Assembly: GCA_965215125.1 (NCBI GenBank) | Contig: OZ244052.1 | Span: 960,001-1,024,000, forward strand | Source of the DNA: an uncultured candidatus Porisulfidus sp. | Lineage (GTDB): Bacteria > Pseudomonadota > Gammaproteobacteria > Poriferisulfidales > Oxydemutatoraceae | Length of the DNA stretch: 64,000 nucleotides | Direction: 5' to 3' | Part shown: one piece after another, positions 4,722 to 9,149 of the stretch | Layout of the letters: each line of letters begins with the position of its first letter | How positions within the stretch are numbered: position 1 is the stretch's first letter | Translations under genes and position numbers: made by a program | The notes under the pieces: generated by a model | Told to the model about the DNA's origin: nothing | Databases searched by the model: none | The model's input: only the letters and a program-made list of their open reading frames with translations

Positions 4722-5060
4722 CTAATCTATATTGGTTGGTGGCACGTAGGACGGGTCGTTGGGGTTTAGGAATATAAAGTTGTATTGTCCTTTTTCCAGC
4801 TCTACATAATCTATGGTCATATTTTTGATCATGCCGAGCATGGCACTATTGATGACGATATTGACATTATTACTCTGTAGCTTAAGATCGTCTTCGTGGT
4901 TTTGATCGTCTATACCCATCGCATAATGAAAACTGCCGTCTGCATTGCGCATCACAGCCAATCTTAGATTTACCGTTTTTGCTTCTTCCGGTTTTATGGA
5001 TTGTTGTATTTGTTGCGCCGCAATGTCGGTGATTTTTATAATATTATCGTCTCTACTCAT
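4722..5060 (-). CDS. dsrR: DsrR (IscA/HesB-like, no cysteines)
   Basis: LRLAV.RNADGSFHYAMG, IDYVELE.GQYNFIFLNPNDP.Y.PP. Confidence 0.8.
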   Translation of the reverse strand: MSRDDNIIKITDIAAQQIQQSIKPEEAKTVNLRLAVMRNADGSFHYAMGIDDQNHEDDLKLQSNNVNIVINSAMLGMIKNMTIDYVELEKGQYNFIFLNPNDPSYVPPTNID

Positions 5061-5712
5061 GGTTCGTTCTATAGTCTTTCAATCCTAATGCCGAAATCGT
5101 TTTGCCAAGTAATTTTCTTGATGCTTTGATCTCGGGTTGGTTTATGTGCCCGGCTAAAACAGCGATAAACTCCCCACCGGCTCGCTCGAAGTCATCGTTC
5201 ACAATAGTATAATTGTATTCGCTGAAATGTTCCGCTTCGGAAATCGCTTGTTTCATGCGTGCATCAATCACTTTTACAGTATCTTGTGCGCGTTTCTCCA
5301 GACGTTTACGCAGAGTTGGCAACGAAGGAGGCAAAATGAATATAGAAAAAGTGTTGTCATAACACGCTCTTATTTGCCTAGCACCCTGCCAGTCTATTTC
5401 CATTACGATAGTGTGTCCTTGAGCCAATGTATTTTCTATATAGGATTTTGATGTACCGTAGTATTCGTTGTATACCAGCGCATGTTCAATAAAATCGTTT
5501 TGTTCAATCATTTCTCTAAAAGTTTTTTTATCGACAAAATAATAATCTTGTCCCTCTATTTCATCGGGCCTAGGACGGCGAGTTGTATGCGATATGGATA
5601 GTTTTAGGCTATTTAACTCTTTCAATGCTTCTTTGATTAGACTGGTTTTGCCGCTGCCGGACGGCGCAGACACTACAAAAAGGCGGTTATTATCAGGAAT
5701 TTCGAGTCTCAT
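5053..5712 (-). CDS. gmk: Guanylate kinase
   Basis: SAPSGSGKTS P-loop, SISHTTR.PR, YYGTS, EIDWQGA. Confidence 0.95.
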   Translation of the reverse strand: MRLEIPDNNRLFVVSAPSGSGKTSLIKEALKELNSLKLSISHTTRRPRPDEIEGQDYYFVDKKTFREMIEQNDFIEHALVYNEYYGTSKSYIENTLAQGHTIVMEIDWQGARQIRACYDNTFSIFILPPSLPTLRKRLEKRAQDTVKVIDARMKQAISEAEHFSEYNYTIVNDDFERAGGEFIAVLAGHINQPEIKASRKLLGKTISALGLKDYRTNHE

Positions 5713-6119
5713 TAGGTTTGCTTTTTAGGAAATTATAACACGGAGGAAACATCATTCACCTTTTATATAATTCGTCAGGGAATTATATAGTTAACTTGAC
5801 AAAGAAATGTTAAATTATATTGACCTTCCCCCATTTTCAGGGCCAAAACTTAAATGAGATCTGTATTATAAGTCACCTCTGTGCCTTATGCTAATAAAAT
5901 CTTAAATAAAGCTAGATTTCCAAGCTCGCATTCCAATATGGGTTGGTTATTCTCGTTCAGTGGCAATTTAGACAAAATCCTATGTTGTTGCCTAAATTGA
6001 AGTCTTGCAACTAAAAAACCAGCCTCATAATGCGCCTTTAAGCGACGATCTCTAGTCGAGATGACCTCTACTAGCTGCTGATTTTTAGCTCGTTTCATAA
6101 CTACTAAACAAGCCTTACG

Positions 6120-6938
6120 CTACGCAACACGTGTGGCGAATGCTACCGGGGTCATATAATCTAATGAGCTATGCGGGCGTTCATGGTTATAGTGGTATCG
6201 CCACTGTTCAATAATATGACGCACTTCCTGAAGGCTGCGGAACCAGTGCTGGTTAAGGCAATTGTCTCTAAACTTACCGTTCAGGCTTTCCACCAAAGCA
6301 TTCTGGGTCGGTTTACCCGGTTGAATAAAGTATAGTTCCACGCCGCTATCTTGCGACCAGACCTGCATCTTTTTACTAGTGAACTCCGGCCCGTTGTCGC
6401 AGACGATGCTTTGCGGACAACCTCGCTCGGCGATGAGTTGCTCTAAACATCTCACCACTTGCCCACTGCTAATCGAAAAACCAGCGAATTGACCGATCAG
6501 TTCGCGACTGTAATCGTCCATCACATTGAATATCCTAAACGACCTGCCGTCGCTTAACCGATCATGCACAAAGTCCATTGACCAGCGACAATTCACCTGT
6601 TCAGGCAATGCCTGCCGTTGCCTCGTGCGGATGAGCTTCTTGCGCAGTCTTTTGGGTACTTGCAGTCTCGCTTCTTTGTAGATGCGGTGAACCCGTTTTT
6701 TATTCACTACAAAGCCTGCCTCTCGTAGCAAACGGTAGAGTAGCAAATAGCCATAGCGTGGATACTTGCTTGCCAACTCGCACAAGCGACTTCTAATCTC
6801 TGCATCACAACGCGGCTGTGCTTGATAGTGATAACTACTACGGCTTATCCCGACCAGCTCGCAACTGCGCCTCTCACTCAAACTCCAATGAGTATTCAGC
6901 TCTGCAACAACGCTTCTTTTGCTTGCCGGGGTCACCAC
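6120..6938 (-). CDS. IS3 transposase OrfB (rve DDE domain)
   Basis: WSMDF, CDNGPEF, PGKPTQNALVESLNG; -1 frameshift at A6G overlap with orfA. Confidence 0.93.
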   Translation of the reverse strand: MVTPASKRSVVAELNTHWSLSERRSCELVGISRSSYHYQAQPRCDAEIRSRLCELASKYPRYGYLLLYRLLREAGFVVNKKRVHRIYKEARLQVPKRLRKKLIRTRQRQALPEQVNCRWSMDFVHDRLSDGRSFRIFNVMDDYSRELIGQFAGFSISSGQVVRCLEQLIAERGCPQSIVCDNGPEFTSKKMQVWSQDSGVELYFIQPGKPTQNALVESLNGKFRDNCLNQHWFRSLQEVRHIIEQWRYHYNHERPHSSLDYMTPVAFATRVA

Positions 6939-7195
6939 TTTTTTGATAGCACATCCTTGAGGGCGGTGATTTCTAATAGTTGCTCGCCGAGTAGTTTCTT
7001 GAGTCGGTTATTCTCCGATACAAGGTTCTTTAATCGCTTGGCATCATTGACTTCTAACCCGGCATATTTGCTACGCCAGTTGTAAAAGGTGCCATGCGCT
7101 ATACCGAGTTCTCGGCAAATGTCCTCTGTGCTGCGACCTGCCTCGTGCGATTTGATCGCACCGATAATTTGCTCTTCTGTATATCGTTTATTCAT
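6932..7195 (-). CDS. IS3 transposase OrfA (HTH)
   Basis: RYTEEQII...TFYNWRSKYAGLEV..AKRLK.L..EN.RLKKL, ending KKW. Confidence 0.93.
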   Translation of the reverse strand: MNKRYTEEQIIGAIKSHEAGRSTEDICRELGIAHGTFYNWRSKYAGLEVNDAKRLKNLVSENNRLKKLLGEQLLEITALKDVLSKKW

Positions 7196-7278
7196 TTTGA
7201 AACCTCCTGTTGTTTACTAATTTAACTGGAAATCTCATCTTTGTCATGGCCCAGTTTTGGGGGGTAAGGTCAATATCA

Positions 7279-7646
7279 ATGCAAACCCATAGAACAATCA
7301 GATACCATTTATACCCGGCGTCACAGAAAAAACACCGGCAATTACATAGGACGGCAGGCGCATGCCGCTATGTTCGGGATCACTTTGTAGCTAAGTTGAA
7401 GGACGAATACGAGTATTACGGCGAGAGCCGGTTTAACTTCTTCACCCTAGGCAAGCAATTTACGACATTAAGAAAGTATTGCGACAAGTGGTTGCAAGGT
7501 TATTCCGCTTATATAGTCAAATCGTCATTACAACCGAAAACATTTTGGCGGCTGGGAGTACCGCAACCGGATGTGGAGACGGCGACAGTGGCAACACAAG
7601 TCGGTCAATGAAGCGTCAAAAAGATAGGGTGGGCAAGGCAGGCTAA
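7279..7646 (+). pseudogene. tnpB: tnpB remnant: N-terminal HTH fused out of frame to the extreme C-terminus
   Basis: RYHLYP...AGACRYV N-terminus; after ~7536 another frame reads NILAAGSTATGCG...SMKRQ; RuvC and Zn-finger deleted. Confidence 0.8.
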
Positions 7647-7769
7647 AAAGTCTGTCAAGTTACCTATATAACTCCCATTCGCCAAATAGGTGTTATACTA
7701 TCGCCTATAATCCGGATTGATCGGTTGGTCAATCCAATACGAAATAGACATTATCGGGAAGGAAATAAA

Positions 7770-8399
7770 ATGAAACTAAAGCTATTTTTAATCGGTTTAT
7801 CGTCAATATTCGCTTTGTCAGGGTGTTCTACAATGTCTGATACCCGGGATTGGTTTTTTGAAGACGATGAAGAAGTCGTTGAAATTTCCATGGAAGATGA
7901 GATGGAGGAGGAATTCGACGAGGAGTTTGATGAAACATTTGACGAAGAGTTTGAAGAGGAATTCGACGAGTTCGAAGAAGAATTTGACGAAGAGTTCGGC
8001 GAAGAATTAGAAGAAGAGTTTGGAGAGGAATATGGGGATGAACCTATTAGAAGACGTGCATCGGGAACTTCTTTACCACGAGCCATTGTTTATTTTGATT
8101 ATAAGAGTACTATAGTCCCGGCAACAAGCCTTAATTTGTTGCAATTACATTCTCAATATCTGATCAACAGCGGTGCTTCCGTTACTTTAGTAGGACACTC
8201 CGATGCGATAGCGTCCAGTCGCTATAACAAGGAGCTCGCATTGAGAAGGGCACAAGCCGTTGCCCAGATATTAGTTCAAATGGGAGTCTCTCCTTCCAGT
8301 ATCAGGACAGAGAGCCGTGGCGAAGACGAATTGGCTGTAGAGGGTGATAGTCCCTATGCGAATGGTATGAATAGACGAGTTGAGCTTCGTTACGAGTAA
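7770..8399 (+). CDS. OmpA/Pal-family lipoprotein with long acidic linker
   Basis: Lipobox LSGC; VYFDY, GHSD...YN..LA.RRA, NRRVE; E/D/F-rich repeats. Confidence 0.85.
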   Translation: MKLKLFLIGLSSIFALSGCSTMSDTRDWFFEDDEEVVEISMEDEMEEEFDEEFDETFDEEFEEEFDEFEEEFDEEFGEELEEEFGEEYGDEPIRRRASGTSLPRAIVYFDYKSTIVPATSLNLLQLHSQYLINSGASVTLVGHSDAIASSRYNKELALRRAQAVAQILVQMGVSPSSIRTESRGEDELAVEGDSPYANGMNRRVELRYE

Positions 8400-8717: not shown

Positions 8718-9149
8718 TTAATATGCCTTCATGCCTTCGGCATCTTTCATGCCTTCGCCGCATTTACCTTCACCACATTTGCCTTCGGCATCTTTCATGC
8801 CTTCGGCACCTTTCATACTTTCACCACACTTACCTTCACCGCACTTGCCTTCGCCGCATTTACCTTCACCACATTTGCCTTCGGCATCTTTCATACCTTC
8901 GGCACTTTTATCATGATGACCGCAATGACCTTCGGCATCTTTCATGCCTTCGCCGCATTTGCCTTCGCCGCATTTGCCTTCACCACATTTACCTTCCATG
9001 TGAGAACCTGCCAGCATATAGCCGCTGGGCAGTTCCTGCACCGAGAAAATATTGTTTTCGGCAGACACGGCTCCCGCCATCGTCATGCTTCCCGCTAGGG
9101 TGGCAGTTACCAATCTGATTGATTTTTTCAATTTAAAGTCGTTGTTCAT
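8718..9149 (-). CDS. HvfA-like (EGKCG-repeat) RiPP/metallophore precursor
   Basis: Signal peptide, L.SGYMLA linker, 9 EGKCG and 1 EGHCG repeats, EGMKDA spacers. Confidence 0.85.
   Translation of the reverse strand: MNNDFKLKKSIRLVTATLAGSMTMAGAVSAENNIFSVQELPSGYMLAGSHMEGKCGEGKCGEGKCGEGMKDAEGHCGHHDKSAEGMKDAEGKCGEGKCGEGKCGEGKCGESMKGAEGMKDAEGKCGEGKCGEGMKDAEGMKAY

Follow-up and report, generated by a model that had tools for sequence, protein, structure and literature searches.

According to a 2026 review (PMC13565253), the insertion sequence (IS) families IS200/IS605 and IS607 have neither terminal inverted repeats (TIRs) nor target-site duplications, and the RNA-guided nuclease TnpB benefits there by cutting the scarless empty site after excision, for which reason it is rarely linked to DDE transposons. 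The same review, following Altae-Tran et al. 2023, lists TnpBs that are encoded together with DDE transposases (ISL2, IS630, IS1031) inside TIRs. Altae-Tran et al. 2023 (PNAS, PMC10691335) described six DDE-associated TnpB branches with inverted terminal repeats (DDE-1 to DDE-6) as well as solo TnpBs with the same ends, which they proposed to move in trans, and the principle of a DDE-linked TnpB is hence already published. For the IS1595 family, an element making 8-bp A/T-rich repeats has been described (PMC12561309). Here we analyse a tnpB locus in a 64,000-nucleotide stretch of DNA, referred to as the window (G000:C1:960001-1024000), which belongs to a closed genome of 2.22 Mb (G000; 99% complete). 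The element at window positions 5778-7676 is a dead copy, internally deleted and split by an IS3 insertion, of a non-autonomous transposon that contains only tnpB between IS1595-family TIRs of the GGGAATTATA type, that was probably moved in trans, and whose TnpB would cut the empty allele.

The two 24-nt arms of the window copy agree at 22 of 24 positions (92% complementary), and the 8-mers outside them, ATTCGTCA and ATTCGCCA, are identical at seven of eight (coordinates in Table 1). Termini of the tnpB elements read GGGAATTAT; in ISfinder, GGnnATTAT termini and a transposase motif of its own mark the ISNwi1 subgroup of IS1595, to which these ends may belong. Subtraction of the IS3 together with one ATAT copy leaves a remnant of 443 bp (43 + 400), in which 21 nt separate the tnpB ATG (7279) from the left TIR and 6 nt separate the C-terminal frame's stop codon (7644-7646) from the right TIR. 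The sole Pfam match of this remnant is that of its N-terminus to PF12323, HTH_OrfB_IS605 (E 6.4e-5; 22.8 bits against a cut-off of 21). Tblastn aligns the remnant with two stretches of a full-length genomic copy, residues 1-86 and residues 363-397; an internal deletion of ~826 bp has removed residues 87-362 with all RuvC residues and the zinc finger, and contigs of other genomic copies part from the window sequence precisely at 7537/7538. The window copy is incapable of making TnpB and keeps the whole RNA scaffold and both TIRs. A first-pass annotation, made from the window letters, had proposed a unit of ~443 bp with 24-nt TIRs and an 8-bp duplication, nearly filled by a tnpB remnant; our figures reproduce the unit and the distances from start and stop to the TIRs, with the duplication at 7/8.

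Further copies, which the same annotation had called for, are present in the genome. The 24-nt TIR pattern (at most three mismatches) has 13 matches in G000, seven forward and six reverse, while the reversed control pattern has none there, indicating that the window TIR pair did not arise by chance. These matches form six pairs and one single, whose diverged partner was located separately. Seven TIR-bounded elements are found, five intact and two internally deleted, the latter being the window copy and one of 588 bp with a deletion between 11-bp direct repeats. The intact elements measure 1259-1269 bp and have open reading frames (ORFs) of 397-405 aa; their ATG is element position 46, and in four of the five the ORF enters the right TIR and closes with a TAA 5 nt before the terminus. 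Because the ORF fills the element and usually stops within the right TIR, there is no room for IS605/IS607 ends, and the idea that full-length copies might carry such ends inside the TIRs is excluded for lack of space. Target-site duplications are perfect (8/8) in two of the seven copies, 7/8 in three and unclear in the rest. Single ends and mini-remnants also occur (G000:C1 597941, 1127796, 1174941-1175012, 1196843, 1280254 and 1380547). Their TIRs are those of other subfamilies known from other genomes, for instance ...CCTAAATCCGC, ...CTATTCTG and ...CAATTATGCACA, and hence several TIR subfamilies have passed through this genome.

The same arrangement is found well beyond G000. A five-protein alignment was used to scan one genome per species; 137 relatives were found and 80 loci kept, seven of which were too short, leaving 73 testable loci (at least 4 kb). 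A GGGAATTATATA-like motif (at most three mismatches) stands inverted at both ends of 67 of these 73 loci, and the elements so bounded are 1210-1516 bp long and contain tnpB only. In 36 of the 67, the 8-mers flanking the two ends are the same, and in 5 more they differ once (at least 7/8 in 41). Across the family the ORF begins 14-132 nt from the left terminus and ends within the right TIR, with protein identities to the query as low as 39%. Labelled hosts include uncultured Gammaproteobacteria (Oxydemutatoraceae, Porisulfidus, Rariloculaceae), Thermodesulfobacteriota, Dadabacteria and Caldilineaceae, among others. The six motif-negative loci include some with diverged TIRs, such as L035, and five of them match our RNA model (below) at their own tnpB end; at L071, which has a truncated tnpB, the only model match lies ~2 kb downstream. 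In the nearest TnpBs outside the clade, L162 (G226) and L163 (G007; 35-39% identity), the TIR motif was not found, and a search of plasmids gave only ordinary TnpB genes with identities up to ~36%. After tnpB, both L162 and L163 have GC-rich hairpin-like sequence, as in ordinary IS605-type ends. One locus (L084), on a contig labelled Nitrosopumilaceae archaeon, shares TIRs, duplication (AATGCGAT) and flank with a locus on a Caldilineaceae chromosome (L049); this may be one DNA placed in two bins rather than a case of an archaeal host.

The likely source of mobility is an IS1595-family transposase, the cognate enzyme that the first-pass annotation had suggested should be sought. The tnpB elements have GGGAAYTATA-type termini and 8-bp duplications in common with autonomous ISs encoding a PF12762 (DDE_Tnp_IS1595) transposase. 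In G002, 22 of 24 TIR bases are common to an autonomous IS (L098) and the tnpB elements (L024-L026), and the TIR of an autonomous IS in G405 (L143; GGGAATTATGTAGGTAACTTGACA), a genome of the same order as G000, matches the TIRs of the G000 tnpB elements at 23 of 24. The genome G000 itself possesses two near-identical copies of a 1294-bp IS with a PF12762 transposase (E 1e-39); the TIR GGGAACTATAGCGATTAGTTGACAAAG of this IS agrees with that of the tnpB elements at 21 of 27 ungapped positions (by eye), and one copy has an 8/8 duplication. Autonomous IS1595-family copies show 8/8 duplications at 10 of 15 scored loci. An IS1595-family transposase was detected in each of the eight TIR-tnpB genomes checked (G000, G001-G005, G259 and G385), against a background of 23 of 401 genomes in a class sample (the positives include G044, an unpublished genome) and 1 of 14 control genomes; kinship among these genomes makes this co-occurrence a support and not a test. 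No IS1595 transposase lies inside the TIRs at any of the 80 tnpB loci, and transposase similarity within 2.5 kb of tnpB occurs at only two of the 80. With no PF12762 transposase in the element and an ORF that encodes TnpB, we regard it as a non-autonomous user of IS1595-family ends and not as a member IS. Searches of G000 for the Y1 transposase (PF01797) and the serine recombinase (PF00239) gave no matches, while the control searches were positive in 6 and 12 of 14 genomes, respectively. Taken together, the near-identical TIRs, the 8-bp duplications, the transposase in all eight genomes and the lack of Y1 and serine transposases in G000 make it a well-supported inference that the tnpB element was moved in trans by an IS1595-family transposase. 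In G385, a tnpB of the clade and an IS1595-family transposase gene stand 2-3 kb apart in the same relative order at two places (C1 1213078-1217035 and 2430305-2435216), which may represent a repeated composite unit.

A full-length genomic copy of the protein matches PF07282 (1e-18), PF01385 (1.8e-10) and PF12323 (2e-8), and the TnpB of ISDra2 (8bf8/8ex9/8exa) aligns over residues 9-376 (E 4.7e-28). The RuvC residues D184, E266 and D357 and the cysteines C328, C331, C347 and C350 of the CxxC...CxxC zinc finger do not vary among the five intact copies, falling in the motifs GLDRN, YMEGLN and NADVNAALN. For most pairs of G000 copies and close relatives, the ratio of nonsynonymous to synonymous substitution rates (dN/dS) lies at 0.03-0.18 over codons 1-355, and for the closest pair (e1291 vs e1725) at 0.39; such low values show that the copies diverged as working genes and that full-length TnpB is under purifying selection. 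A solved chain of 540 aa named ‘Transposase’ (PDB 9j09_A) matches TnpB residues 208-366 (E 2e-29) and shares with the clade an insert, SAKGT..PGKNV..KSGLNR, between RuvC-II and the zinc finger; it may be a pointer to the closest studied relative of the clade.

In the last ~45 codons the pattern of substitution is reversed, as synonymous change falls several-fold and amino-acid change rises (e1153 vs L021: dS 1.84 in the body and 0.12 in the tail). Five lineages share nucleotide motifs in this tail region, and one of them reads a conserved GGGAAU loop in a different frame, giving the protein tail NIRRLGMAQLHGE instead of the NILAAGNTATGRGD found elsewhere. RNAalifold over all 65 sequences gave a poor consensus, and we used folds per lineage and a covariance model (R1) built from 21 sequences of the lineage with the shifted tail frame. 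In each of 76 sources (510 kb, both strands) R1 has exactly one full-length match, and all of them end at the right terminus. The first-pass annotation had noted that the deletion spares the region where an omegaRNA would be encoded; R1 does match that part of the window copy (39.6 bits, E 6e-7, model positions 1-132) and its match ends at the TIR terminus. Paired cells amount to 95.8%, compared with 82.2% in shuffles and 30-44% when the partners are slid; compensatory changes occur in 15 of 25 pairs, and the covariation score, 0.332 against 0.132, was not attained by any of 500 shuffles. Five helices are part of the model. The sixth, absent from it, is a pseudoknot in which the loop of hairpin A (GGGAAU) meets the six terminal bases of the TIR (AUUCCC); it is paired in 92.8% of cases and includes one pair that switches between AU (44) and CG (10). 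The last ~132 nt of the element are a conserved, covarying RNA structure that overlaps the 3' part of tnpB and ends at the tip of the TIR. Scanned against Rfam, the window region and nine full-length elements yielded no relevant family, only an M23 sRNA below threshold. The geometry of the pseudoknot resembles that of the ISDra2 omegaRNA, which has a 116-nt scaffold, a 16-nt guide and a pseudoknot of positions -5..-3 with -103..-105 (PMC10097598). By this analogy the guide would start at the first base beyond the TIR, that is, with the duplication itself, and window positions 7677-7692 are the predicted guide if the RNA continues past the TIR, like those of known TnpB systems.

The insertion sites are not symmetric. 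For 42 independent insertions with duplications of at least 7/8, oriented by tnpB, the base directly 5' of the left duplication (-9) is a purine without exception (A 19, G 23). The base preceding it is G, T or A in 40 of the 42, and the duplication itself begins with A in 34. The mirror position on the right side shows no bias (A 15, C 12, G 5, T 10). By eye, a purine at -9 is also present in the window copy (TATA directly before ATTCGTCA), in the 588-bp copy and in a mini-element of G001. For comparison, a metagenome control gave the same TIR type in only 8 of 66 IS1595-relative loci with enough flank, and the control set comprises 11 clean sites; at these autonomous IS1595 insertions a purine precedes the duplication in 6 of 11 (A 4, C 3, G 2, T 2; Fisher p 1.6e-4). 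The purine footprint looks like a transposon-associated motif (TAM), since a symmetric transposase preference cannot yield a one-sided rule and a TAM read by TnpB on the empty allele could. An alternative use of positions -14..-9, as the -35 box of a hybrid promoter, was dropped, for the C required at -10 is found less often there than any other base (2 of 42).

The empty-site allele sought by the first-pass annotation is represented in G001, where the flanks are 82-85% identical, the window insertion point is unoccupied and a single diverged copy of the 8-mer is present. Only 13 bp away, in the orthologous gmk/ompA intergenic region, this genome has an independent derivative of 140 bp in the opposite orientation (L111; G001:C1:421878-422035), which resembles a miniature inverted-repeat transposable element (MITE) and is composed of 46 bp of left end and 94 bp of right end between the duplications GCCTTTTG and GCCTTTTA. 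The same intergenic region has hence been hit twice, and MITE-like decay products of the element exist.

These observations can be assembled into a mechanism, every step of which is conditional. An IS1595-family transposase acting in trans would bind the TIRs, move the element and make the 8-bp duplication. TnpB with its 3' RNA would then cut the unoccupied allele, recognizing the TAM, the single copy of the 8-mer and the right flank, and such cutting may favour retention or copying of the element. It would also account for the purine that stands without exception just 5' of the left duplication in surviving insertions. More tentatively, and with somewhat less than even probability, the whole TnpB/omegaRNA clade may be adapted to a duplication-making DDE transposon, so that the tip of the TIR serves as a pseudoknot strand, the guide starts with the 8-bp duplication, a lineage-specific TAM ends in a purine and cutting filters the surviving insertions. 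If so, restorative homing would not be confined to the scarless excision of IS605/IS607, and deleted copies such as that of the window would be guide-only units served by TnpB from other copies.

Several points weigh against this account. Its steps are deduced from sequence and computation, and among the sequencing runs listed no RNA run contained the element. The control of autonomous ISs has just 11 sites, and the TAM-like signal is degenerate, with only the purine strict; the bases preceding it vary by lineage and could track the GC content of the host. The seven copies in G000 are old (77-95% protein identity) with several imperfect duplications, and the resident IS1595 matches their TIR at only 21/27, which together make current mobility in this genome doubtful. 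The best-matching IS is that of G405, a genome without a tnpB of this clade, and the pairing is therefore not obligatory for the IS. As for the RNA, the alignment was fitted to the structure of the model, so that pair counts are inflated for five of the six helices; the two main helices are invariant within the seed lineage, and at three of the six pseudoknot pairs 6 to 12 of 69 sequences do not pair. A promoter scan in and beside an intact copy found no sigma-70-like promoter.

Other explanations share part of this evidence. IS1595-type transposition might move the element with TnpB as a mere passenger, in which case the RNA would act in the expression or stability of tnpB, or in binding of the transposase to the right end, the flank would not be a guide, and the purine at -9 would reflect an orientation-dependent preference of the transposase complex. 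That the TAM-like signal consists of one strict base fits such a reading, and a consistent difference between left and right TIRs just inside position 24 makes an oriented transpososome conceivable. However, autonomous ISs with the same TIR type do not follow the purine rule (6/11 vs 42/42), the RuvC and zinc-finger residues are intact in a protein under purifying selection, and the RNA stops exactly at the element terminus and has a pseudoknot of ISDra2-like geometry; we therefore consider a passenger role unlikely.

It is much less probable still that the transposase is the clade's own TnpB, with an RNase-H-like RuvC fold that would cut and join the TIR ends and leave no need for an IS1595 enzyme, even though the elements encode nothing besides TnpB and annotations long labelled this protein a putative transposase. 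Against this stand the end-to-end alignment of the protein with the ISDra2 nuclease, the TIR identity of up to 22-23/24 with PF12762-encoding elements that make the same 8-bp duplication, and the IS1595 transposase in 8/8 TIR-tnpB genomes checked against a background of ~6%. The least probable explanation, to which we give hardly any weight, is a nested insertion, by which an ordinary IS605/IS1341-type tnpB element would have entered an older IS1595-derived MITE, leaving TIRs and tnpB unrelated. Nesting is common, and the window copy itself carries a nested IS3. This explanation is nevertheless contradicted by the recurrence of the arrangement at 67/73 loci, in several phyla and down to 39% protein identity, by the fit of the ORF (14-132 nt from the left terminus and ending in the right TIR), by an RNA structure that pairs with the last 6 nt of the TIR, and by the other ends, without the TIR motif, of the more distant TnpBs L162 and L163. 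The preferred explanation remains a tnpB-only transposon mobilised in trans whose nuclease would act on the empty allele.

The IS3-family element that splits the window copy has TG..CA ends and is flanked by a 4-bp duplication, ATAT (5817-5820 and 7273-7276). On the minus strand are orfA (6932-7195; HTH_Tnp_1, E 2e-22) and orfB (6120-6938; rve, E 1e-22, and rve_3, E 6.5e-31). Five full-length copies with 98.7-100% identity exist in the genome, the others at G000:C1 177297-178748, 231637-233088, 585704-587155 and 588842-590293; 4-bp duplications flank four of the five including that of the window (ATAT twice, AAAC twice). This IS3 looks recently active, and its insertion is the youngest event at the window locus. 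Contigs from four DNA runs were compared with window positions 5300-8200; those with joints that skip the IS3 have 9-10 differences and represent other genomic copies, so that they do not bear on an IS3-free allele at this site. Neighbours of the tnpB element are gmk on the minus strand (5053-5712) and, on the plus strand, an OmpA-family gene (7725-8399). The OmpA-family protein contains a long run of acidic E/D-F repeats, and a nearby ORF on the minus strand (8718-9149) has KCGEG repeats.

Table 1. Features of the tnpB locus in window coordinates
Feature	Position	Strand	Evidence
TATA, candidate TAM-like position (purine at 5769)	5766..5769	+	Family-wide purine 5' of the left duplication
Left 8-bp target-site duplication ATTCGTCA	5770..5777	.	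7/8 vs 7677-7684
Left TIR GGGAATTATATAGTTAACTTGACA	5778..5801	+	Inverted-repeat search and genome TIR pattern; 21/27 ungapped vs TIR of the genome's own IS1595-family IS (by eye)
Remaining 5' leader up to the IS3 insertion point	5802..5820	+	Alignment with full-length copies
IS3-family IS, secondary insertion, 1452 bp	5821..7272	-	Inverted repeat, Pfam, alignment, 5 genomic copies
tnpB remnant, residues 1-86, HTH_OrfB_IS605 region	7279..7536	+	Tblastn, 90.7% identity to the 397-aa copy
Internal-deletion junction	7537..7538	.	Alignment, tblastn segments, invariant residues, contigs
tnpB remnant, residues 363-397 and stop, in another frame than the N-terminal piece	7539..7646	+	Tblastn, 97% identity; ORF 7479-7646
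OmegaRNA-like region: hairpin A, helix B, terminal hairpin, pseudoknot with last 6 nt	7526..7676	+	Covariance model R1
Right TIR, inward GGGAGTTATATAGGTAACTTGACA	7653..7676	-	22/24 vs TIR of the G405 autonomous IS (L143); other genomic copies 23/24
Right 8-bp target-site duplication ATTCGCCA	7677..7684	.	7/8 vs left copy
Predicted guide segment (duplication and 8 nt of flank)	7677..7692	+	Would follow from the RNA model's 3' end and the ISDra2 omegaRNA analogy

The clade described here spans several phyla and resides in duplication-making DDE-type ends without a transposase of its own, with a predicted guide RNA fused to the TIR. It offers a concrete and testable case of how an RNA-guided nuclease may serve a cut-and-paste element. 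It also shows that tnpB-only genes can be part of a transposition system other than IS200/IS605, to which routine annotation assigns them as accessory proteins, and it makes available compact TnpB/omegaRNA pairs of ~400 aa with a defined scaffold end. We did not find the IS1595 partner, the transposase-free design, the fusion of RNA and TIR or the insertion-site footprint described before. Full-text literature searches, judged largely on titles and abstracts, revealed no pairing of TnpB with IS1595, ISXO2 or ISNwi1, and for Fanzor with Merlin, the eukaryotic relatives of IS1595, gave only reviews. The term ‘IS1595’ is absent from the main text of PMC10691335, the supplement of which may list this clade.

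Among known systems, the IS1341 group of IS200/IS605 (ISDra2) is similar in having a single tnpB with the same domains, an omegaRNA that overlaps the 3' end of the gene and a pseudoknot to a site ~100 nt upstream. That family, however, has subterminal hairpins and a Y1 transposase, whereas the elements studied here have 24-nt TIRs and 8-bp duplications, and no Y1 is found in G000. IS607 differs in its serine-recombinase TnpA and its lack of TIRs and duplications, both of which are present here in a genome without PF00239. Fanzor1 proteins in eukaryotic TIR transposons (Bao and Jurka 2013, PMC3627910) likewise represent TnpB-type nucleases in DDE transposons with TIRs and duplications, but they have eukaryotic or viral hosts, are longer and belong to other transposon superfamilies. 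The branches DDE-1 to DDE-6 have a TnpB inside a TIR transposon, with its 3' end near the transposon end; their named partners are IS630 (in the review ISL2, IS630 and IS1031) and their transposase is encoded beside tnpB, while here it is inside 0 of 80 elements. With the IS1595 ISs and their MITE-like or passenger derivatives, the tnpB elements share the GGGAAYTATA-type TIRs and the 8-bp A/T-rich duplications, but they carry no transposase, and their interior consists wholly of tnpB and its RNA.

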